Source of the DNA: an uncultured Gammaproteobacteria bacterium
GTDB taxonomy: Bacteria; Patescibacteriota; Microgenomatia; CAYGWK01
Reading direction: 5' to 3'
Length of the DNA: 64,000 nt
Assembly: GCA_964353785.1 (NCBI GenBank)
Contig: CAYGWK010000004.1
Location: 22,730 to 86,729, forward strand
The position numbers and the translations under genes are program-made. Positions 1,386 through 39,820 of this stretch are shown piece after piece. Every line of letters starts with the position of its first letter. Within the stretch, counting starts at the first letter, position 1. The notes beneath the pieces were generated by a model. It made no database searches. It was not told the DNA's origin and was given only the letters and a program-made list of their open reading frames with translations.

Positions 1386-2357
1386 ATGGCAATTTTTAAG
1401 CAATCAGACCAATTTGTTCCTCGCAAGCTACCAGGAAAAATTTTAAAGCCAATACCAAAACCAAAAGGAGGAGGAAAATGGATTTTGACTCTTTTTGCCG
1501 GAAGCATAGTTCTAAGTTTAGGTTTATGGGCTTATGGCTCCTTAAAAACAGGAACAGGTATTCAAAAAATAATTAGCCCGCAGGTCGTTCCTACTCCGAC
1601 CCCGACCCCAACCCCCAAAAAAACTGCCGAGATAACCGATAAAGTTTCTGATTTAACCAAAAATTTAAAAGGAGAATATGGGATTTACGTTTTTAATTTA
1701 ACGACTAAGCAAGGATATGGAGTAAATGAAGATGAAATCTTTCCAGCTGCTTCTTTAATTAAACTGCCAGTATTTTTAACTTTATATCAAGAAGCAGAAG
1801 CTGGCAGAATTGATTTGGAGACAAAATATACTTTGAAAAATTCTGATAAACAGGCTGGGGCAGGAGGGATGCAATATAAGCCTGCGGGAACAGTTTTTAC
1901 TTATAGGCAGATGGCAGAATTGATGGGAAAACAATCAGATAATACCGCCGTTTTTGTTTTGCGAAAAATCCTAGGGGATCAAAAAATTCAATCTACTATT
2001 GATAATTTGGGGATGACAAAAACCTCTCTTTCAAAAAATGAAACTAGTCCTCAAGATTTAGGTTTATTTTTTAGAAAATTATATGCGGGTTCAATAGTCA
2101 GCCGAGAGCATCGGGATGAGATTTTGGGATATTTAACCGAAACTTTTGATGAATCAAGAATCCCGGCTGGCGTACCAGAAGGAACGAGAGTTTGCCATAA
2201 AGTCGGGACTGAAATAGGCATTATCTCCGATGCGGGAATCGTTTTTAGCCAAAAACCCTTTATTTTGGTAATAATGTCTGAGAATGTTAAAGAATTAGAA
2301 GCCAAAGAAGTTTTACCAAAAATCGCCAAGGAAGTTTGGGAATTTGAGAATAAATAA
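1386..2357 (+). CDS. class A beta-lactamase-like serine hydrolase, membrane-anchored with a PT-rich linker
   Basis: N-terminal TM helix, PTPTPTPTP linker, SxxK (ASLIK), SDN (QSDNTA) and KxG (HKVGTE) motifs in class A order. Confidence 0.7.
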   Translation: MAIFKQSDQFVPRKLPGKILKPIPKPKGGGKWILTLFAGSIVLSLGLWAYGSLKTGTGIQKIISPQVVPTPTPTPTPKKTAEITDKVSDLTKNLKGEYGIYVFNLTTKQGYGVNEDEIFPAASLIKLPVFLTLYQEAEAGRIDLETKYTLKNSDKQAGAGGMQYKPAGTVFTYRQMAELMGKQSDNTAVFVLRKILGDQKIQSTIDNLGMTKTSLSKNETSPQDLGLFFRKLYAGSIVSREHRDEILGYLTETFDESRIPAGVPEGTRVCHKVGTEIGIISDAGIVFSQKPFILVIMSENVKELEAKEVLPKIAKEVWEFENK

Positions 2358-2394
2358 ACTATTGACATTATGATAAATTTGTCATAAAATAATC

Positions 2395-2691
2395 ATGAAA
2401 GTTTTCTATCTGCCTGAAGTTGCCGATTTTGTAGAGAAATTAAGATATCAGGAACATACTCGATTAACCAGAGTACGAAAGCTCTTTGAAGAATATTCAT
2501 TTCAAATAGGTGCTAAATATATAAAGAAAATTACAGCCTCCGGAATATGGGAATTGAAGGCGGGCAGGATTAGATTGTTTTTATATGTCAAGGGAGATAA
2601 GGCGATAGGGGTTCATATAATTTGGAAAAAATCACAAAAATTGACTATTAGAGATATAAAATTAGCAGAAAGACGAAGCAAACAACTATGA
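2395..2691 (+). CDS. higB: type II toxin, HigB/Gp49-like (RelE/ParE superfamily)
   Basis: 98 aa; GIWELKAGRIRLFLY...WKKSQK motif characteristic of the Gp49/HigB family; 4-bp ATGA overlap with the downstream HTH gene. Confidence 0.7.
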   Translation: MKVFYLPEVADFVEKLRYQEHTRLTRVRKLFEEYSFQIGAKYIKKITASGIWELKAGRIRLFLYVKGDKAIGVHIIWKKSQKLTIRDIKLAERRSKQL

Positions 2692-2981
2692 AAAATAAAA
2701 GAACAAAACTTATTAGCGCTGAAGCATTGCATCGAAAATGGATGAAAGATCCAAAATATCGCCGTGAGTATGAAAAACTTGAGTCAGAATTTCAAATTGC
2801 TCGGCAAATTATTGGAGCAAGGATTAAAAGGAAAATGTCTCAGGAAGAGTTGGCGAAAAAAGCAGGAACTGGACAAGCAGTTATCTCCCGACTTGAGGGA
2901 ATGAACGGCAAACCTTCAATTTCTCTTCTTGAAAGAATCGCCCGCGCCTTGAATACAAAAATAAGGGTTACTATTCAATAA
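2688..2981 (+). CDS. higA: HigA-like antitoxin, XRE-family HTH
   Basis: 97 aa; HTH segment MSQEELAKKAGTGQAVISRLE; translationally coupled to the upstream toxin gene. Confidence 0.7.
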   Translation: MKNKRTKLISAEALHRKWMKDPKYRREYEKLESEFQIARQIIGARIKRKMSQEELAKKAGTGQAVISRLEGMNGKPSISLLERIARALNTKIRVTIQ

Positions 2982-3019
2982 ATTATCAGAGTAGTTTGGG
3001 AGTTTGAGACAAAGTAAAT

Positions 3020-3616
3020 ATGGTAATTATTAATTGGGATACGTTGTTAAAAATAGGCTCTTTAGCAGGATTAGCATCGTTTGTGTGGCTATTGATAAAG
3101 GATCTTGTTGGGTTTTACCGAAAACCAAAATTAGAAATTACATTTACAAAAAACAGAGATTTAAGGAATTTCTTCTTTGAGGATACGAAATGGGAAAGAA
3201 GGTTTGCCAATTTACATATTAAAAACAAGGGGAAAGATACCGCCAAAAGATGCGTTGCTATCTTGAGAGTTTTAACAAAACCACGAGAGGCTACAAATAT
3301 TGAAGAAGAATATGCTCTTCATTGGGCTGGAGTTGATTATTCTGCTCAAACAACCGGCGCAGAACCCGTTGATATAGGTCCCGAACCAAGAAGATTAGAT
3401 GTGGCGTTCACTCAGAATGGTCAGAATATAAATGGGAGTTGGATAGCGATGCCTCTTGCCTTATTGGGATCTTTAAGAAGAAATCAGGCGTATCTTCCAC
3501 CGGGTGAATACGAACTTAAAATTGAGGTTCAATGCGAGAACGGAAGTGGAGATAAAGCAAAATTTAAAATTATTTCTCCTCAGAATTGGGAGAATTTAGA
3601 TTTTGATAAGTTATAA
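3020..3616 (+). CDS. hypothetical protein with N-terminal TM anchor (cassette ORF)
   Basis: ORF with N-terminal hydrophobic helix; flanked on both sides by copies of the 3' end of the upstream hydrolase gene. Confidence 0.5.
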   Translation: MVIINWDTLLKIGSLAGLASFVWLLIKDLVGFYRKPKLEITFTKNRDLRNFFFEDTKWERRFANLHIKNKGKDTAKRCVAILRVLTKPREATNIEEEYALHWAGVDYSAQTTGAEPVDIGPEPRRLDVAFTQNGQNINGSWIAMPLALLGSLRRNQAYLPPGEYELKIEVQCENGSGDKAKFKIISPQNWENLDFDKL

Positions 3617-3807
3617 TATTTCTGGGACTTCTGCGGAAGAAGCTTTCCCGCCATTATCAAAATGGTTTGGGAGTTTGAGATAAAATAAATTTTCTTCTTA
3701 AAACACAAAAAGGCACCGCGAAAAGTAGTTTTGTTGCTCAACGCAACTCGTTACTTCTCTTTGGTGCCTCCTTGCACTATTCAGTTTCTGGAAGGATGTG
3801 TTGGGGG

Positions 3808-4519: not shown

Positions 4520-6835
4520 TTATAGGTTCTTGTTCTTTCTCTCTTCCTCAATCTTTTTAATTTCTTCTTCTGTGCAGGAATTTTTTGGTTCGGTGCCAGG
4601 AAGGAAAATTTCTGTTTTTTTGCTTGGGCAGGCATCGCAGGACAAGGTTCCGGTAAGGGTGCAAATTTCAACCCTGACTAAGTTTTCTGGAAGAGAAAAT
4701 TTCTCATCAGGTTTGTCTTTTAAAAGTTCGGCCATGATATTGTGCCAAATTGGCGAGGCGCCGGTCACGCCCGAGGCAACGTAAGACATAGGTGTAGCAT
4801 CGTTGTTGCCGACCCAGGTAACGACCAAGAGATTTGGAGTATAACCGATGGTCCAGTTATCTTTTAAATTGTTGCTGGTGCCGGTTTTAACCGCCACCGA
4901 GGGATGTTCGGGGATATTTAAAAGTGAATTTGGACCAAAGGCTGGAGTTCGAGCTAAGTTGTCAGAAAGAATATCATCTAAAATATAGGCGATCTGCGGC
5001 GAAAGAGCCCTTTCGCCTTCAATTTCCAGCTTTTCCAGAACTTTTCCTTTATAATTTGAGCGTAGCGAAAATTTCAAGCTTTGCTTATAATCTTTAACCT
5101 CCAAAATTGGCTGTAAACCAACTTTCATTCCCAAATTTGCCAGGGTTCCATAAACTACGGCCATGTCAGTCATTTTGACTTCGCCTCCGCCTAAAGTTAG
5201 GGAAAGTCCGTATTGGGAGGGGTCGTTCCAGGTAGTGATGCCCATTTTTTGACCTTGTTCAATCATTCGAGAAACTCCTAAAGCAGAGAGAACTTTAACT
5301 GCCGGAACATTATAAGAAGAACCCAGGGCTATCCTTAGAGGGACATTGCCATGAAATCGGCCATCATAGTTTTTTGGCGAATAAGGAGGTTGTCCAGGAA
5401 CCTGATAAGTTATGGGCGTGTCGGGAATAATGGTGGCTGGCGTAAAACCCATTGAAAGAGCCACCGAATAATTAACTGGTTTAATTGAGGAGCCGGGCTG
5501 GCGGTTGGCGGTGGTGACGTTATAGTTTCCCTGGTTTTTTAAATCAAAATAATCTTTTGAACCTATCATCGCTAAAATTTCTCCGGTTTTAGGATTAGTT
5601 ACCAGGGCAGCTCCATTTGAAATTCGCAAAGATTTTAATTTTTCAACCTCACTTGAGACTTGCTTTTGGGCCAGGTTTTGAATATCCAAATCCAAGGAGG
5701 TTTTAACCTCAAGTCCACCTTCCTCAACCATTTTTTCTCCATATTTTTTAACCAGGAGTTCTTTAACATACATCACAAAATGGGGAGCGAAAATGTCAGT
5801 TTTTTTCAAAACCAGATGGATGTCCTGGGCCGATGCTTCGTCTGCCTGTTTTTGGGTGATAAATTTTTCCTCAACCATTCGGCGCAAAACAAGTTTCTGG
5901 CGCTCTTTGGCAATCTCTGGGTGGGCGCCGAAAGGAGAATAGGTAGTTGGTGAGGCTGGCAAGCCAGCTAAAAGAGCGGCTTCGGCCAAATTTATCTCTT
6001 TGACTGATTTGCCAAAATATAACTGTGAAGCCTCTTCAACCCCATAAGCCGCGCCCCCAAAACCAACCTCATTTAAATACATCTGAAGAATCTCGTCTTT
6101 TGAGAATTTTCTCTCAACCCATAAAGAGAGAATTATTTCTTTTATTTTTCTGCGAATGGTTCGTTCGGGGGAAAGGAGGGCATTTTTAACTAGTTGTTGG
6201 GTAATGGTTGAACCACCCTCGATTTTTCCAGTTTGGACAATTTTTCTGGCAGCCCGAAGAATTCCTTTTGCCGATAGTCCATGATGAGAATAAAATTCAG
6301 CATCTTCAATGGCGACCACCGCCTGGCGCAAAAAAAGGGGAGTTTCTGAAAGAGGAACTAGGGTTCGATTTTCGCTGCGATAAATTTTATAGAGAAGTTT
6401 GCCGTTTCGGTCGTAAATTTTGGTTGAGACAATCTGTTCTCTGGTGGTAAGTTTTTGGGGATTGGGGAGTTCGGAAAAAATAGTAAATAGAAAATAGGAA
6501 ATAGCAGATAGGAAAGAAACAGTTAAAAAGACAAGGAGAACAACCTTTCGAGAAATTTTGGGAAAGCGGATTTTTGGAATTCTGGGAAAACGAATTTTGG
6601 GAAATCTTAAACGAGAAACGTAAGACGCAAAACACGACAAGAGATTTATCAAGAAATGTCCAAGACGAGGAAAAAGGCTGGCAATCGCCAATAGGCAGTA
6701 GGCAATAAGAAGTATTGCCCAAAGGAACGGCTTTCCTAAAACCTCCAGAACTTTGCCAAAAAATTTCCAGGCAGAGAACCCTTTTTTGGGTTGAAGTTTT
6801 TTGGCGGAGTAGATGATTCCTGTCCTGACCGCCAT
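4520..6835 (-). CDS. class A penicillin-binding protein (PBP1a-type transglycosylase/transpeptidase)
   Basis: N-terminal TM; GT51 motif GGSTITQQLVKN; transpeptidase SSIKP (SxxK), SYN (SxN) and KTGTS (KTG) motifs. Confidence 0.9.
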   Translation of the reverse strand: MAVRTGIIYSAKKLQPKKGFSAWKFFGKVLEVLGKPFLWAILLIAYCLLAIASLFPRLGHFLINLLSCFASYVSRLRFPKIRFPRIPKIRFPKISRKVVLLVFLTVSFLSAISYFLFTIFSELPNPQKLTTREQIVSTKIYDRNGKLLYKIYRSENRTLVPLSETPLFLRQAVVAIEDAEFYSHHGLSAKGILRAARKIVQTGKIEGGSTITQQLVKNALLSPERTIRRKIKEIILSLWVERKFSKDEILQMYLNEVGFGGAAYGVEEASQLYFGKSVKEINLAEAALLAGLPASPTTYSPFGAHPEIAKERQKLVLRRMVEEKFITQKQADEASAQDIHLVLKKTDIFAPHFVMYVKELLVKKYGEKMVEEGGLEVKTSLDLDIQNLAQKQVSSEVEKLKSLRISNGAALVTNPKTGEILAMIGSKDYFDLKNQGNYNVTTANRQPGSSIKPVNYSVALSMGFTPATIIPDTPITYQVPGQPPYSPKNYDGRFHGNVPLRIALGSSYNVPAVKVLSALGVSRMIEQGQKMGITTWNDPSQYGLSLTLGGGEVKMTDMAVVYGTLANLGMKVGLQPILEVKDYKQSLKFSLRSNYKGKVLEKLEIEGERALSPQIAYILDDILSDNLARTPAFGPNSLLNIPEHPSVAVKTGTSNNLKDNWTIGYTPNLLVVTWVGNNDATPMSYVASGVTGASPIWHNIMAELLKDKPDEKFSLPENLVRVEICTLTGTLSCDACPSKKTEIFLPGTEPKNSCTEEEIKKIEEERKNKNL

Positions 6836-6866: not shown

Positions 6867-9101
6867 TTAGGGAGTAGGAGATGGAGAGAGTAAATTTAGG
6901 GGGTTTATTTTGGCTGGGGCGGGTTTTTGCTCTGGAGGCAAGGGTGGACAATCAAGGCAAAAAATTGTTCCCAGGGGGTCCAAAATTACATTATGGTCTT
7001 GAGGTTCAACCCAATCAGGAAAAGGTTGGTCAGAGGAAATTTCTCCTGGCTGGACCGGAAGACCTGAAGTTTTATTTATCAAAACCGTTTTTCTTAAAGA
7101 TTCAGTCTCCTGAGGAACTGTTCCTTCCAAGAAATACTCAAACCGAGTTTGGCAGCCTGACTCTCCGAGAGCCATTCCGGAGACAGTACAAATACTTGCC
7201 CCAATTATACCTTCGGGCTTGATGGGCCAGTTTTGTTTCTGGCTTTTTAAAACAAAACTTATGATTTTATTCCAAATTGGTGAGGCGCCGGTCACCCCCG
7301 AAGCCACGGCGGACATTGGTTTGTTATCATTGTTGCCAACCCAAGTGGCAACTAAAAAGTCAGGGGTATAGCCGATTGTCCAGTTATCCTTTTTATCATT
7401 AGTGGTTCCGGTTTTGACGGAAACTTCAGGATGACCAGAAACCACCAAATATGAAGATGGTCCAAAGGCAAGGGAACGGGCATTATTATCAAGTAAGGTA
7501 TGAGAAATTAAATAGGCAACTTCCATGGGAATAATTCTTTCACCCTCTTGGATTTGGGTTTTTTCAAGTGTCTTTCCGGTATAATCAGAAACCTCTAAAA
7601 TTGAAACTAGCGGTTGTTTTATTCCTAAGTTGGCAAAAACCCCAAAAGCAGTGGCCATATCTGTCATCCGGACTTCGCCCCCACCCAAGGTTAGAGATAA
7701 ACCATATTGTTTTGGATCTTGGAGTGTCTCAAGCCCCATTTTTTGAGCAAAAGGAACAAAATTTTCTAAAGTATTTAAGGCTAAAACTTTAACCGCGACC
7801 ACATTAATTGAACTTCCTAGGGCAAATCTTGCTTGAAGCGGTCCATGGAAAGTATTGTCATAATTTGAGGGACAATAAAGTGGCTGACCAGTGACCTGGA
7901 AACAGGTTGGAGCATCGTTGAAGACTGTGGCTAAAGTTATTTTTTTATCCAAAAGTCCCAAAGCATAATTTAAGGGTTTGATGGCTGAACCAGGCTGGCG
8001 CAGGGCGGTTGAAACATTATAGTTTCCTTGAATATCTTTGGCAAAATAGTCTTTTGAACCAACCATGGCTAGAATCTCACCAGTTTTAGGGGCAGTTACC
8101 AAAGCGGCGCCATTTGAAACACGATAATTTTTAAGTTTGCCAACTTCAGTGGCCACTGCTCTTTCGGCAAACTCTTGAGTATCCAAATCTAAGGTAGTCT
8201 TAACCCGAAGCCCCCCTTGTTCAACTTGTCTTTGGCCATATTTTTCCACCAACTGTTCCTTAACGTACATGACAAAGTGGGGGGCTTTAATTCCAGTTTC
8301 ATGAGGGGCAAAACTAAGTTCCTGTTCTTTTGCTTTTTTGCTTTCTTCCTCGGTAATATGTTTGTCCTCAACCATTCTTCCCAAAACCCAAATTTGGCGC
8401 TGGAAAGCCAGTTCTGGATGGGCCCCAAAAGGAGAATATCTAGTAGGCGAGGCCGGCAGACCGGCCAAAAGAGTCGTTTCGGCTAAAGTCAAGTCGCGGG
8501 CGGACTTTCCAAAATAAAGTCTTGCCGCTGATTCTATTCCCCAGGCAGTTCCTCCGTAAGGAACTTGGTTTAAATACATCTCTAAAATTTTGTCTTTTGG
8601 GTAAATTACCTCAACTGCCAAGGTCAGAAAGAACTCGCGGATTTTTCTTCGGACTGTTCGCTCTGGTGTTAGGAGGGCATTTTTAACCAATTGTTGAGTA
8701 ATGGTTGAACCACCTTGAAGTTTTTGGTGAAAGATAATATTAAAGATGGCCCGGGCCATGCCTCGATAGGAAAAACCATGGTGGCGATAAAAATCTTTGT
8801 CTTCAGAGGAAATGGTTGCCCATTTGATATATTCTGGAACTTCCGAAAGTTTTATTGGAGTTCGGTTTTGGTCAGTATAAATTTCATATAATAATTTTCC
8901 ATTTCGATCAAAAATCTGGCTTGAAACAGGATAGGGCCAAGAGGTAAGTTTCCAGGGGGGAGGCATGTCCCAGAATAAATAAAGCAAACAGCAGACAGCA
9001 AACAGCAGACAGCAAACAGCAAGAAATTTTTGTTTAGTGGTTAATTTCTTAAATTTTTTACTGAACACTGGACGCTGAACGCTGGACACTGCTTTCTTCA
9101 T
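6867..9101 (-). CDS. class A penicillin-binding protein, second paralog (PBP1a-type)
   Basis: GGSTITQQLVKN GT51 motif, SAIKP, SIN, KTGTT motifs; start moved to internal Met (MKKAVSS) before the TM; Pro-rich C-terminal tail. Confidence 0.85.
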   Translation of the reverse strand: MKKAVSSVQRPVFSKKFKKLTTKQKFLAVCCLLFAVCCLLYLFWDMPPPWKLTSWPYPVSSQIFDRNGKLLYEIYTDQNRTPIKLSEVPEYIKWATISSEDKDFYRHHGFSYRGMARAIFNIIFHQKLQGGSTITQQLVKNALLTPERTVRRKIREFFLTLAVEVIYPKDKILEMYLNQVPYGGTAWGIESAARLYFGKSARDLTLAETTLLAGLPASPTRYSPFGAHPELAFQRQIWVLGRMVEDKHITEEESKKAKEQELSFAPHETGIKAPHFVMYVKEQLVEKYGQRQVEQGGLRVKTTLDLDTQEFAERAVATEVGKLKNYRVSNGAALVTAPKTGEILAMVGSKDYFAKDIQGNYNVSTALRQPGSAIKPLNYALGLLDKKITLATVFNDAPTCFQVTGQPLYCPSNYDNTFHGPLQARFALGSSINVVAVKVLALNTLENFVPFAQKMGLETLQDPKQYGLSLTLGGGEVRMTDMATAFGVFANLGIKQPLVSILEVSDYTGKTLEKTQIQEGERIIPMEVAYLISHTLLDNNARSLAFGPSSYLVVSGHPEVSVKTGTTNDKKDNWTIGYTPDFLVATWVGNNDNKPMSAVASGVTGASPIWNKIISFVLKSQKQNWPIKPEGIIGASICTVSGMALGESGCQTRFEYFLEGTVPQETESLRKTVLINKTSGLPVQPGEISSDQPFPDWVEPQDHNVILDPLGTIFCLDCPPLPPEQKPAPAKINPLNLLSPSPTP

Positions 9102-9209
9102 GCTTGTATTATAGCAGGCAAAGCCTTTATGGTATAAGCGAAGCTTGAAAACTTGTTTGAAAGCTGATGCTTTCAAAAGCCTTTGCCTTTTAGGCAAAGG
9201 AAGTTTATA

Positions 9210-9872
9210 ATGGTTTTTGTGAAAGAAAAAACCTTAAAATTAAAAAACGTAATTCAGCTTTATACTTTCATTTTTCTCATCTGGGGATTTTATCGATATT
9301 TATTTAGGCTTCCTGAAGAAATTGAAGAATTAGTTTTAAAACCTATCATTTGGCTTGGTCCAGTATTTTTTCTTCTTTTTAAAGAAAAAGCAAGTCTTTC
9401 CTCGCTCGGTTGGACAGGAAAAAATCTTTTTAAGAGTTTATATTTAGGAATAGGTTTGGGAATAATTTTTGCTATTGAAGGGTTATTTACTCATACCCTT
9501 AAATATGGCGGAATTTCTTTTGTTAAACTTGCCTATACCTCGCTTCCTGTTTTTTTAGTTGCCCTAGGCGTTTCTTTAGGAACAGCCATTTCTGAAGAAA
9601 CAGCCTTTCGCGGATATATTTTCTCAAGACTTTGGCAGATTTTAAAGAACGAATGGTTAGCAAATCTGGTCTCAAGCCTAGGTTGGGCCTTGGTTCACTT
9701 ACCCATTACCATTTTTGTTTTTCATTACAATCCGGTTCAGATTTTAGTTTTTCTCATTTTAACTTTTATTTTTGGGGCAGGCTCGGCTTTTGTTTTTGCC
9801 AGAACCGGAAATTTGGCTTCTTCAATTTTGCTTCACGTTTTCTGGGGCTGGCCAATAATATTATTTAGATAG
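9210..9872 (+). CDS. CPBP-family (CAAX/Abi) intramembrane glutamic protease
   Basis: Multi-TM; EETAFRGYIFSRL (EExxxR), later H and HxxxF-type motifs typical of the CPBP family; start chosen at MVFVKEK. Confidence 0.7.
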   Translation: MVFVKEKTLKLKNVIQLYTFIFLIWGFYRYLFRLPEEIEELVLKPIIWLGPVFFLLFKEKASLSSLGWTGKNLFKSLYLGIGLGIIFAIEGLFTHTLKYGGISFVKLAYTSLPVFLVALGVSLGTAISEETAFRGYIFSRLWQILKNEWLANLVSSLGWALVHLPITIFVFHYNPVQILVFLILTFIFGAGSAFVFARTGNLASSILLHVFWGWPIILFR

Positions 9873-9892
9873 ATTCTGCCTAAGGACAGGCT

Positions 9893-10336
9893 ATGAAAAA
9901 CATTGAAATTGATAAAGGCAGAGTTGTAGACACAAGGAAAAGTGGAGAACTTATCTGGCGTCGCCGCCAAATGCCTGATGGCACACGGTTTACCACTATA
10001 GAGAGGGTTGCATTATTTGTTTCTGACGAGAAAGGTGTAACAGAGGATTGGGACTTTGACAAATTGTATCATTCGATAGAAGAGGCATCATTTGGTAGAA
10101 TGACAGATGAACAGATTACAAAGATCATAAGTGAGTCTTTGCACCATTTTATATCGAAGAGAGATGGGTTGCAAAAAAGAGTGATATTTGCAAGAGATGT
10201 TGCAGAAACCGTATTTAGCGTATTAGAGAAAGTAGATATGGCCGCCGCTGTTTGTTATGGAGCAACTCATGGGGTTGGAATATTTAGTAGTGATAGCCTA
10301 GACCCGATTTCGGATTGGTTAGAAAAGAGAAAGTAA
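9893..10336 (+). CDS. hypothetical protein (cassette ORF)
   Basis: 147-aa ORF lying between two copies of the CPBP gene 3' end. Confidence 0.45.
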   Translation: MKNIEIDKGRVVDTRKSGELIWRRRQMPDGTRFTTIERVALFVSDEKGVTEDWDFDKLYHSIEEASFGRMTDEQITKIISESLHHFISKRDGLQKRVIFARDVAETVFSVLEKVDMAAAVCYGATHGVGIFSSDSLDPISDWLEKRK

Positions 10337-10442
10337 ATCAGATAAGCGTGATAGTCCGTAACACTTTAAGATGTCTTTTGGGGCTGGCCAATAATTCTGT
10401 TTAGGTAATTAGCTGATTAGTTGAACGGGGAATGGGGATAGT

Positions 10443-20054: not shown

Positions 20055-20127
20055 CGCGGGGTAGTGTAAAGTTGCACGGAAGGCTCATAATCTTCCAGCC
20101 TGGGCGCGATTCCCAGCCCCGCAACCA
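20055..20127 (+). tRNA. tRNA-like sequence with CAT anticodon and noncanonical T-loop (possible degenerate/unusual tRNA)
   Basis: Cloverleaf foldable by hand: acceptor CGCGGGG/CCCCGCA with C1:A72 mismatch, anticodon loop CTCATAA, T-loop CGCGATT lacks T54-T55-C56; encoded CCA; abuts the next tRNA with zero spacer. Confidence 0.35.
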
Positions 20128-20199
20128 GGCAGCGTAGCTCAGTGGTAGAGCGGTATCTTCATAAGATAATGGTCACAGGTTCAAATCCTGTCGCTGCCA
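20128..20199 (+). tRNA. tRNA with CAT anticodon (elongator Met or lysidine-type Ile2)
   Basis: Acceptor GGCAGCG/CGCTGCC, D-arm TAGCTCAGTGGTAGAGC, anticodon loop TTCATAA, T-arm ACAGG-TTCAAAT-CCTGT. Confidence 0.8.
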
Positions 20200-20202
20200 C
20201 TA

Positions 20203-37876: not shown

Positions 37877-38175
37877 TTAACAAACCCCAGTTAGTTGGTG
37901 ATATTCTTAAAACTTTTGACCCCTTAAAAGATAAATATATTTCTCAAGAGTTTCAAAAATATGGTTATGATTTGGCAGTTGAATTAGGCGATTTAGAGCA
38001 TAAAGCTTTATACATAAAACTTGCCAAAGAAACTCCAAGGCAGATTTTGGAGCAAGCGAGAAATTTTGTTAAGGACGCGGGAAGAGTTAAAAGTAAGGCA
38101 AGGTTATTTATGTGGAAACTGGGAGAACTAAAAAATGAAAGAAAGCCTGTCTCAAAAAATCTACGCCGTTGTTAA
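37873..38175 (+). CDS. hypothetical protein
   Basis: 100-aa ORF overlapping neighbours by 4 and 41 bp. Confidence 0.4.
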   Translation: MINKPQLVGDILKTFDPLKDKYISQEFQKYGYDLAVELGDLEHKALYIKLAKETPRQILEQARNFVKDAGRVKSKARLFMWKLGELKNERKPVSKNLRRC

Positions 38176-38419
38176 ACAAATTCCTCCTGGAAAAGTAGCG
38201 ACTTATGGGAAGATTGCGGCTAAAATAGGAAATCCCCGAGCAGCCCGAGCCGTTGGCAATGCTCTTCACCGAAATCCTGACCCCAAAAACATTCCTTGCT
38301 ATCGAGTAGTAGATAGAAATGGTAGGCTGGCGCCGGGTTTTAGAGAACAGAAAAGAAAACTTTTGGCTGAAGGAGTAAAATTTAAAGATGGAAATCATGT
38401 ATGTCTAAAGTCTTTATAG
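38135..38419 (+). CDS. MGMT-family DNA-binding domain protein (Ogt/alkyltransferase-like)
   Basis: Active-site-like IPCYRVV (Ogt consensus PCHRV) within a ~90-aa winged-helix domain. Confidence 0.7.
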   Translation: MKESLSQKIYAVVKQIPPGKVATYGKIAAKIGNPRAARAVGNALHRNPDPKNIPCYRVVDRNGRLAPGFREQKRKLLAEGVKFKDGNHVCLKSL

Positions 38420-39153
38420 GAACTTCGGGTTTTATGTATTCTCACTGGAAGGGAGAATTTTACCCCAAAGATTTACCCCAAAGAGAGTGGTTTGAATATT
38501 ATTGTCAGCATTTTGACTCGGTTGAACTTAATGTTTCTTTTTATCGCCTGCCCAAAAAAGAAGTATTTGCTGGTTGGCGAAGAAAAGCAGGTAAAAACTT
38601 TGTTTTTTCCATTAAAGGTAGCCGATTTATTACCCACATTAAGAAATTAAAAGATTGCCAGGAAGCGGTGGAGAGATTTTTTGAAGCCGCAGATTCCTTA
38701 AGAGGTCGGACCTCTCAGGAGGTCCGACCTCACCAGGGAAGGAATATCATTCTTTGGCAGCTTCCGCCAGGCTTAAAAGTAAATTCAGAAAGACTGGAGT
38801 TGTTCTTAAAAATCCTGCCCAAAGATTTTCGTCATGCCTTTGAGTTTCGCAGTTCGACATGGCTCACTGTAAAGGTTTGTGAATTGCTTCGGAAATATAA
38901 TTCCGCAGTTGTTTTTCAAGATTATCCTGATTGGCCGATTACTCGGGAGGAAACCGCTGATTTCGTCTATATCAGATTCCACGGAAACCGCGACCTTTAT
39001 TCTTCTGAATACACTGATGAGGAATTAAGAGAATGGGCAAAAAGAATTAAAAAATATTTAAAAGAGGGAAGTGATATCTATGTATATTTCAACAACGATG
39101 CATTGGGCTATGCAATTTCTAACGCTTTGACTTTGAAAAAGTTACTAGGTTGA
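38401..39153 (+). CDS. DUF72-family protein
   Basis: GTSGF...W...FYP...L.YY...F..VE.N.SFYR pattern typical of DUF72 (UPF0759). Confidence 0.7.
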   Translation: MSKVFIGTSGFMYSHWKGEFYPKDLPQREWFEYYCQHFDSVELNVSFYRLPKKEVFAGWRRKAGKNFVFSIKGSRFITHIKKLKDCQEAVERFFEAADSLRGRTSQEVRPHQGRNIILWQLPPGLKVNSERLELFLKILPKDFRHAFEFRSSTWLTVKVCELLRKYNSAVVFQDYPDWPITREETADFVYIRFHGNRDLYSSEYTDEELREWAKRIKKYLKEGSDIYVYFNNDALGYAISNALTLKKLLG

Positions 39154-39210
39154 AGATGTTTATGCCTATTTCGAGAGAAGCGAGAAACAAGGTTCTGCGT
39201 AGCAGGTTCT

Positions 39211-39280
39211 TATTTTAATAACGATGCTTTAGGGTATGCGATTTCCAATGCCCAAAGATTGAAAAAACTGGTAGAATAAA
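39211..39280. repeat. diverged direct repeat of the last ~70 bp of the DUF72 gene
   Basis: TATTTTAATAACGATGCTTTAGGGTATGCGATTTCCAATGCC...GAAAAAACTGGTAGAATAA matches 39085-39153 (pseudo C-terminus YFNNDALGYAISNA...*). Confidence 0.75.
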
Positions 39281-39283
39281 GAC

Positions 39284-39820
39284 ATGAGAAAAGAGATTTT
39301 AAGCCACCTGGTGCCGACTTTAGTCTTTCTGGTTTTGGTAACTCTGGCCCATTGGCAACTTAATTTTTCTTTAATCTTTTTCTGGTTGGGAGGGCTTTTT
39401 GGCAGTCTTTTCTTGGATATAGACCATCTTTTTTATGCCTATCTTCAGGCTCCTCACGAATTTACCTCCCAGCGGGTTAAAAGACTTTTTGAACAAAAGC
39501 AGTTTAAGGTAGGGATGATTCTTTTGTTTGAGACCCAGGAAGAGCGGGGAAGGATGATATTTCATTCGGTTCTATTTCAGATTATTCTTCTGATAGTTTG
39601 CTTTTTTGTTCTAACCTCTTCCGCCAGTTTATTCGGCAAAGGCTTGGTTTTGGGGATGCTACTTCACAGTCTGACTGATCAGGGTTTTGAATTTATCAAA
39701 AATGGGGAGATTGAGAACTGGTTTTGGCAGTTTAAGGAAAAACCTGGGATTAATCTTCAGGCAATTTACCTGGCAGTGATTTTTATCGTCTTCGTTGTTT
39801 TCTCCCTTCTCTGGATTTAA
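39284..39820 (+). CDS. membrane protein, hypothetical
   Basis: 4-5 predicted TM helices. Confidence 0.45.
   Translation: MRKEILSHLVPTLVFLVLVTLAHWQLNFSLIFFWLGGLFGSLFLDIDHLFYAYLQAPHEFTSQRVKRLFEQKQFKVGMILLFETQEERGRMIFHSVLFQIILLIVCFFVLTSSASLFGKGLVLGMLLHSLTDQGFEFIKNGEIENWFWQFKEKPGINLQAIYLAVIFIVFVVFSLLWI

Follow-up and report, generated by a model that had tools for sequence, protein, structure and literature searches.

Why should a gene in a tightly packed genome be followed, almost without a gap, by a second and diverged version of its own end? This question is raised by the DUF72 (YecE-like) gene in a 64-kb stretch (hereafter, the window) of a tiny genome of the Patescibacteria, or candidate phyla radiation, in which the last 69 nt of the gene (39085–39153, YFNNDALGYAISNALTLKKLLG and stop) recur at 39211–39279 (YFNNDALGYAISNAQRLKKLVE and stop). 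An earlier note on this DNA had taken the recurrence for a possible excision scar or empty attachment structure, seen either after cargo loss or before cargo gain. Our results point elsewhere: the second copy is the dead end of a DUF72 gene from another clade, interrupted by a miniature insertion (element E), and the locus is probably a relic of illegitimate and homologous recombination between lineages, in which the resident gene end was left behind. This judgement covers jointly the two routes that are described below. Comparison loci or contigs are designated by L-numbers and proteins by P-numbers.

The structure of the locus is real, since two independent assemblies match the window exactly (Logan assemblies L004 and L005, from separate sequencing runs, with 0 mismatches over 4794 and 2069 nt). 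The exact DUF72 protein of the window (P0001) was found in NCBI and in two Logan assemblies. An assembly artefact is rejected in view of these identical sequences and of the junction present in L002, a contig from a different sequencing run. The recurrence described in the earlier note is well supported, with 48 of 69 nt identical (70%), 14 of the 21 differences at third codon positions and an E-value of 1.7e-9 when the DUF72 gene is compared with the 147 nt downstream by pairwise blastn; the longest exact stretches common to both copies in this alignment are 8 nt long (AACGATGC and TTGAAAAA). The next gene, which encodes a YdjM-like membrane protein, also starts 4 nt after the TAA of the copy as announced, the last base of which is 39279 rather than 39280. 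What had to be revised is the extent of the duplication. Instead of lying 57 bp downstream, the dead copy (C2, 39155–39279) begins 1 nt past the stop of the live one (C1), and its DUF72 part is 81 nt long. The supposed spacer is not anonymous but consists of DUF72 sequence (39155–39171) and of a separate insertion (39172–39210, element E) that splits C2 at a TATTT motif, a copy of which flanks it on each side (Table 1). Stop codons do occur in this spacer in the other two frames, but none is found in the frame of the gene itself; indeed, the copies are offset by 126 nt, in frame, and no frame-0 stop follows the TGA.

When E and one TATTT are removed in silico, the sequence becomes GATGTTTATGCCTATTTTAAT...TAA, i.e. 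GATGTTTATGCC-TATTTTAATAAC...TAA, which is an intact in-frame DUF72 end. This rebuilt dead end (DVYAYFNNDALGYAISNAQRLKKLVE and stop, 81 nt) has the same length as the gene end of L003. An 82-nt unit (39073–39154) is thus present twice head to tail, the second unit running from 39155 and the copies abutting except for a single A; in 'empty' relatives, too, this base comes directly behind the stop (TGA-AGAT-ATG in L003). The boundaries of the units coincide with a 2–3-nt microhomology: each unit opens with GAT, the Asp codon, and GAT/GAC is part of the AGAT/AGAC found behind the stop in L003 and, in the window, behind C2. The first 17 nt of the dead copy are an exact match to the DUF72 gene of L003, L008, L066, L067, L068 and L073 (each with E = 0.002 in an 857-kb database), and the DVYAYF matches in these six relatives sit directly upstream of YFNND tails. 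At the other extremity, near-identity extends over the final 33 nt of the dead copy and the beginning of the next gene, when these are compared with the live tail and YdjM start of L003, whose ...CCCAATGCCCAAAGATTGAAAAAACTGGTAGAATGA-AGAT-ATG almost equals the dead tail and YdjM-like start of the window.

Table 1. Positions of the features of the DUF72 locus, of its sister loci and of E-like elements (window coordinates unless a contig is named).
Feature	Sequence	Position	Strand	Remarks
Live DUF72 (YecE-like) gene		38401–39153	+	250 aa; full-length Pfam PF01904 match
C1 (copy 1), last 27 codons of the live gene	DIYVYFNNDALGYAISNALTLKKLLG and stop	39073–39153	+	YVYF type; with base 39154, forms the 82-nt duplicated unit
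Patch near-exact in L002		39130–39196	+	66/67 nt identical, sole mismatch at 39176
Single A between the C1 stop and the dead copy	A	39154	+	Read directly from the sequence
C2a, first 17 nt of the dead copy	GATGTTTATGCCTATTT	39155–39171	+	DVYAYF in frame +1; final 5 nt are the left TATTT
Element E, 39-nt insertion	CGAGAGAAGCGAGAAACAAGGTTCTGCGTAGCAGGTTCT	39172–39210	+	TATTT at 39167–39171 and 39211–39215
C2b, pseudo-tail, remainder of the dead DUF72 end	YFNNDALGYAISNAQRLKKLVE and stop	39211–39279	+	Ends in TAA
YdjM-like membrane protein gene		39284–39820	+	Pfam PF04307, E = 3.3e-8; usual downstream neighbour of DUF72
Sister locus 1, tail of a beta-lactamase-family gene		2322–3690	+	Tail at about 2322–2357; repeats at 2982–3019 and 3653–3690
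Sister locus 2, tail of a CPBP/Rce1-like gene		9837–10408	+	Tail at 9837–9872; repeat at 10373–10408; 147-aa open reading frame (9893–10336) between
E-like copy, L008		3926–3966		
E-like copy, L068		2926–2966		
E-like copy, L024		3880–3924		
E-like copy, L083		1924–1980		

The way in which the two copies differ is informative on their history. Over 14 conserved codons (YFNNDALGYAISNA), C1 and C2 show nine differences, all at third positions and all synonymous (P = 4.5e-6 for random placement), and the four amino acid changes fall in the last eight residues, at positions that are also variable among homologues. Both tail types occur as live gene ends (...NALTLKKLLG in P0007 and ...NAQRLKKLVE in P0011). 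The alignment of the copies that the earlier note proposed thus reveals a divergence of coding type, as between different lineages. Since a dead copy decaying in place would look otherwise, the divergence of C1 and C2 took place while both were functional gene ends, each in its own lineage.

Their affinities also differ. C1 belongs to the DxYVYF type of L001 and L002, while C2, like the window flanks, belongs to the DVYAYF type of L003 and L006–L008. Over their first 60 nt, C1 matches L002, L001, L008, L006 and L003 at 45, 42, 40, 38 and 37 positions, respectively, and C2 matches L003, L008, L006, L001 and L002 at 52, 50, 48, 46 and 36. A similar switch is seen along the locus, where the window agrees with L003 at 85% of positions upstream of DUF72, at 72% within the DUF72 body and at 86% over 39211–39411, the pattern being reversed with L001 (76% in the body versus 70% in the flanks). 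The dead end and the live gene, or at least the 3′ portion of the latter, are derived from distinct DUF72 clades. In xenologous gene displacement in situ, a gene is replaced at the same locus by a diverged homologue, and the displaced allele normally leaves no trace. The present case is similar in that C1 and C2, as well as the gene body and the flanks, have different nearest relatives and that nothing of the old allele persists except its last 81 nt; it departs from the usual outcome in that the end of the displaced allele survives and marks the joint.

Relatives of the locus show what the site looks like without the duplication. In L001, L003, L006, L007, L008 and L144, whose DUF72 proteins are 81%, 70%, 71%, 72%, 67% and 69% identical to that of the window, the DUF72 gene is directly followed by the YdjM-like gene, with a spacing that ranges from an overlap to about 35 nt. 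The duplicated tail is therefore a displaced gene end and not a piece of a longer gene; the earlier note had left room for the latter in related genomes, and all homologues were found to end at the same place. Among the relatives, no DUF72 product of greater length that ends in a second tail was seen, the L002 instance stopping early with its contig. Neither a second tail nor an orphan DVYAYF fragment was found in 138 further DUF72 loci (58 from GTDB genomes and 80 from JGI metagenomes).

Besides the window, the only occupied site is L002, which has the tail end, the junction and the insertion in common with it and encodes a DUF72 protein (P0007) of 68% identity. The same cargo-less junction is seen there as far as the end of the contig, which falls inside E at the equivalent of 39196 (...AACAAGGTTCT). 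The near-exact patch extends from the last eight codons of C1 through the stop, the A and DVYAYF into E, of which it takes in the first 25 nt. Identity between L002 and the window is 96–98% over 39121–39196, against about 78% for the gene and about 75–80% for its remaining part, and the gene upstream is a different one in L002 (coding for a 23S-rRNA-IVP four-helix-bundle protein). This near-identity of the patch indicates that the arrangement moved between lineages by recombination; genes are in general mosaics across these lineages. A protein search returned no relative of P0007 closer than 69%, degenerate and exact spacer patterns gave 0 matches in GTDB genomes, JGI metagenomes and IMG/VR, so that no cargo possibly following the spacer in the L002 lineage came to light, and exact look-ups of the DUF72 and YdjM-like proteins for alternative alleles led only to the same two Logan contigs. 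Eight viral contigs matching AAGGTTCTGC...GCAGGTTCTT were discarded as chance hits, all of them being coding-sequence matches and mostly Gly/Ser-rich repeats. In a separate observation, L002 (351–420) and L008 (3960–4020) are identical over ∼49 nt spanning the DUF72 5′ flank and first codons (TTATTTGAAATTTGTAATATTGGTAATTATTGATGTCTAGAGCATATAT), with proteins of 61% identity. To the left of this stretch, L002 carries the 23S-rRNA-IVP four-helix-bundle gene and L008 carries E and other short repeats; the identity is another recombination patch or an insertion hot spot.

What is observed comprises the anatomy of the locus, the divergence of its copies as coding sequence, their affinities to two clades, the relatives with an empty site and the features common to the window and L002; the order of events and the enzymology that we infer from them could take either of two routes. 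In one step, an incoming xenologous DUF72 allele would recombine homologously within the gene, and illegitimate joining of its other extremity, a few bases beyond its stop, would take place 82 nt upstream of the matching point in the resident sequence. In two steps, a short tandem duplication at the GAT microhomology would come first, and imports arriving later from either side, left and right, would overwrite each copy separately, their tracts stopping where homology stops. By either route, a remnant of the resident gene end would persist ahead of the YdjM-like gene. E would have broken the resident gene beforehand, the new end then being a rescue, or would have landed later in the dead copy, and recombination would then have carried the arrangement between lineages, including to L002. 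Such a scenario resembles microhomology-mediated duplication and homology-facilitated illegitimate recombination (PMC3240628), with homology on one side and a 2–3-nt microhomology on the other, a diverged relative as donor and gene-dense mosaic genomes. Those events are mostly accompanied by deletion in the recipient (PMC3240628), whereas at DUF72 the joint is located upstream of the point where homology ends, with an 82-nt duplication as the outcome. A tandem duplication is also apparent in the head-to-tail contiguous units with nothing between them once E is removed, and in the microhomology at their boundaries, which is weak.

Several points weigh against this recombination relic. The microhomology at the joint is only 2–3 nt long. 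When homologous recombination on one side is combined experimentally with an illegitimate joint at the far end, deletions are the usual outcome, and gene-end duplications have been attributed to single crossovers of circular molecules (PMC3240628). The residues Ile-Ser (YAISNA) are encoded in both copies and in no sampled relative of either clade, which hints at some shared history that the recombination model leaves unexplained. Only two genomes carry the structure, with the L002 contig stopping inside E, and this limits the reading of the event order, the donor and the extent of the patch. Finally, the two other loci of the window with tail duplications do flank cargo, and a cassette mechanism acting in this organism may have been involved at DUF72.

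Element E is present as a sole copy in the 64 kb. E-like copies were found upstream of DUF72 in L008/L068 and L024/L114 and in frame inside purL in L083 (nhmmer E-values from 2e-16 to 1.5e-6), those of L008/L068 also lying between two TATTT. The family is 39 to 50 nt long (CGAG..CGAGAAAyCAAGGTTCTGC-variable-GCAGGyTCT), often TATTT-flanked and found in five Patescibacteria lineages; all five known copies are within about 1 kb of DUF72, which is possibly a sampling effect since only DUF72-centred loci were sampled. A target-site duplication, a reconstructable empty site and several genomic contexts identify E as a miniature insertion. Its ends (CGAGAGAA... and ...CAGGTTCT) are not inverted repeats, and no cognate transposase was met, the search being confined to the locus. 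E is the sole foreign sequence at the locus, and its presence within the dead copy, with a 5-nt TATTT duplication of its own, represents an independent event. Small non-autonomous insertion elements of bacteria include REP/REPIN, Rickettsia palindromic elements and Correia-type miniature inverted-repeat transposable elements. E is like them in being short and non-coding, in occupying several contexts including coding sequence and in being flanked by short direct repeats; it is unlike them in its 39-nt length, its lack of terminal inverted repeats and its single occurrence in 64 kb.

The earlier note had connected the DUF72 locus with two others, at 2334–3690 and 9834–10408. Both exist, and a scan for copies of the last 10 amino acids plus stop within 3 kb downstream of the 67 window genes recovered exactly three tail-duplication loci (control, 0), compared with one match among 854 genes in other loci, so that the proposed recurrence at gene 3′ ends holds. 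Head duplications were absent at a threshold of at least 8 of 12 residues. In sister locus 1, the first interval holds a Gp49/HigB-like toxin gene paired with a helix-turn-helix antitoxin gene, and the second a 198-aa open reading frame (ORF) without Pfam match. In sister locus 2, the copies are identical at 29 of 36 nt (pairwise E = 1.6e-6) and all 11 residues match, the seven differences (six synonymous codon changes and a TAG/TAA stop) leaving the product unchanged. The 147-aa ORF in between shows weak matches to the NrdR zinc ribbon and ATP-cone, and its sole homologue (P0129, 71%) is found in the same arrangement in L145. At both sister loci, the next downstream gene is on the opposite strand. 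L145 (1–1252, Logan SRR22387818) successively displays a tail, the NrdR-like ORF, a decayed tail, a putative antitoxin ORF without Pfam match, a YafQ-type toxin gene and a third tail; identical stretches of 27 nt are found at both extremities of this contig, which implies either an exact ∼33-nt repeat flanking ∼1.2 kb or a 1225-nt circle. The sister loci and their cargo are real, and a cassette-type process is possible there that may work differently from what happened at DUF72. We give little credit to the more general idea of an undescribed Patescibacteria process by which conserved genes would acquire small accessory cassettes at their 3′ ends, toxin-antitoxin pairs and single small ORFs in the cases observed, with a surrogate end displacing the native one at each insertion. 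In such a process, there would be no cassette-encoded recombinase, the driving force would perhaps be DNA uptake and inter-lineage recombination, and the DUF72 structure would be the minimal cargo-free product, whose in-frame open 126 nt may keep ribosomes flowing to the gene downstream.

Insertion at gene 3′ ends is known from staphylococcal cassette chromosome elements at the 3′ end of rlmH/orfX, with their tandem arrays. Could the DUF72 locus be a degenerate attachment site of this kind, as proposed in the earlier note, where an integrative cassette with a surrogate DUF72 end entered the 3′ end of the gene and its cargo was later deleted? The live end followed by a displaced native end does reproduce an attL/attR pattern, and the sharp rise to 98% identity with L002 at about 39130 resembles a crossover point. 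Sister loci 1 and 2 hold cargo between tail copies, and L145 is a tail-cargo-tail-cargo-tail array in which no fewer than 27 nt of the outermost two tails match exactly; the repeat arrays spaced by small cargo at these loci and in L145 are a point in common with integrative elements. In addition, three tail duplications stand against no head duplication. However, the copies abut with 1 nt between them and without any remnant of cargo or element arms, so a loss of cargo would need a base-exact deletion; a cargo still to be gained fits these abutting copies no better, and site-specific excision would restore a single tail rather than leave a scar. E, which has a TATTT duplication of its own, is located within the dead copy, and the region 39154–39283 contains no ORF of at least 30 aa except overlaps with the neighbours and no recombinase gene, which was sought at the locus only. 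A circular intermediate would measure 82–126 bp, the DUF72 locus and the two sister loci have no core sequence in common, and the cassette that might have been expected at this position in related genomes was looked for without success, nothing being inserted in 144 other DUF72 loci. The direct repeats of integrative and conjugative or integrative and mobilizable elements at the 3′ ends of housekeeping genes span 12–54 bp and include the target gene's exact 3′ end, and streptococcal ones at rpsI, rpmG, lysS and guaA likewise show an intact end followed by a slightly different copy, the displaced one being native (PMC4701971). In contrast, the DUF72 locus has no cargo, no integrase and no identical core, its longest shared exact stretch being 8 nt, and its copies are contiguous, so that no integration between them is demonstrable. 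Taken together, these observations make an attachment site improbable. An even less credible origin is a local tandem duplication in this lineage followed by divergence in place, with no foreign DNA: the head-to-tail order, the microhomology at the unit ends and the lineage-specific Ile-Ser in both copies would suit it, but a dead copy should change at all codon positions, yet nine of nine differences are synonymous (P = 4.5e-6) and the changes track the conservation profile of the DUF72 family. Moreover, C1 and C2 have different nearest relatives, and the junction is 98% identical in L002, whose DUF72 protein is 68% identical.

A third possibility is an ordered variant of the recombination relic, in which E first broke the sole DUF72 copy, with loss of the last 21 residues, and a partial duplication or import that brought in an intact upstream end was then selected as a rescue. 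E in the coding frame at the Tyr-Phe codons would turn NNDALGY... into ERSEKQGSA and stop, the segment lost belongs to a conserved Pfam domain (match up to residue 247 of 250), and E-like elements do enter coding sequence elsewhere, as in purL of L083. On the other hand, no known genome carries an E-disrupted and unrescued DUF72, ordinary repair by double crossover would have taken E out, and E could equally have hit an already dead copy harmlessly. This particular order thus appears rather unlikely, less so than an attachment site. We also considered that the segment might be functional, through low-level readthrough of the TGA or ribosome hopping to the YdjM-like start (from GGT-TGA at 39148–39153 to GGT at 39205–39207, in frame over 126 nt) or through a role of E as terminator or as regulatory hairpin. 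Past the TGA, the frame stays open over the 126-nt offset, which is in phase with the gene, the patch is 98% conserved in L002, a hairpin at 39194–39206 precedes a T-rich run, and the two genes of the relatives are 4–13 nt apart or overlapping, which suggests a translational coupling that the insertion would break. Such an open frame in phase is nevertheless expected by chance in ∼1 of 10 cases by our own estimate. The segment does not fold better than shuffled sequence does (z = +0.24), the single terminator-like site (0.5 expected) is at chance level, and an Rfam search gave no match. A doubled C-terminal segment has no obvious use and TGA is a normal stop in this genome; a function of the segment is thus scarcely believable. 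No promoter-like site was found at the locus (1.3 expected). Recoding of UGA is excluded, as TGA ends 21 of 61 genes. A diversity-generating retroelement was also rejected, since, of the nine mismatches in the conserved part, just one corresponds to an A of the downstream copy, and it is codon position that they track; no ORF of reverse transcriptase size was found near the locus.

The live DUF72 gene, placed between an alkyltransferase-like (ATL-like) gene and the YdjM-like gene, matches PF01904 with an E-value of 5.7e-69 over profile positions 1–216 of 217, up to residue 247 of 250. The surrounding genome, assigned to the Patescibacteria from the names of the nearest homologues, is ∼94% coding, and its intergenic gaps have a median of ∼27 nt. 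Within the gene, positions 38702–38731 form a perfect 13-bp hairpin (GAGGTCGGACCTC-tcag-GAGGTCCGACCTC) that is in frame and unique in the window. A hairpin occurs at the same codon position in L001, L003, L006, L007 and L064–L067, in longer versions in L002 and L069–L072, and is kept in orthologues by compensatory changes on both arms (e.g. GAGGACGGACCTC/GAGGTCCGTCCTC and AAGGTGGAACCTT/AAGGTTCCACCTT); some orthologues have 140–190-nt hairpin-forming in-frame inserts at this site (−32 to −74 kcal/mol). Judged from sequence comparison, this has the look of selection acting on nucleic-acid structure within a protein-coding sequence. Upstream, the 94-aa ATL-like protein (38135–38419) consists of only the DNA-binding domain of O6-methylguanine methyltransferase, and its gene overlaps DUF72 by 19 nt. 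The same pairing is found in L001, while the ATL-like gene is apparently absent from L144 and L008 and apparently internally deleted in L003; this pairing hints at a DNA-repair role for the DUF72 protein of the window. Elsewhere in the window, two adjacent paralogous genes for class-A penicillin-binding proteins on the minus strand (4520–6835 and 6867–9197; 771 and 776 aa) explain repeat families D1 and D2, and two tRNA-Met genes stand back to back (20055–20200), all of them ordinary features.

To conclude, the DUF72 locus is an ordinary kind of relic, a gene-end remnant of a known type that holds a miniature insertion, although its setting is instructive. It can be viewed as a fossil that shows, base by base, a foreign allele replacing a gene end in a gene-dense genome, and it illustrates the movement of 70–200-nt patches between Patescibacteria lineages with no more than about 70% protein identity. 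It also carries a warning: a diverged gene-end copy downstream of a gene is not in itself evidence of a mobile-element attachment site. Besides, displaced tails follow 3 of the 67 genes, two of them with cargo that in one case includes a toxin-antitoxin pair, and a related contig has another such pair. The recurrent cargo-bearing tail duplications and the conserved hairpin within the DUF72 coding sequence are the more promising leads. The routes of gene gain in the candidate phyla radiation are poorly known, and the wider pattern of tail duplication merits a genome-wide survey.

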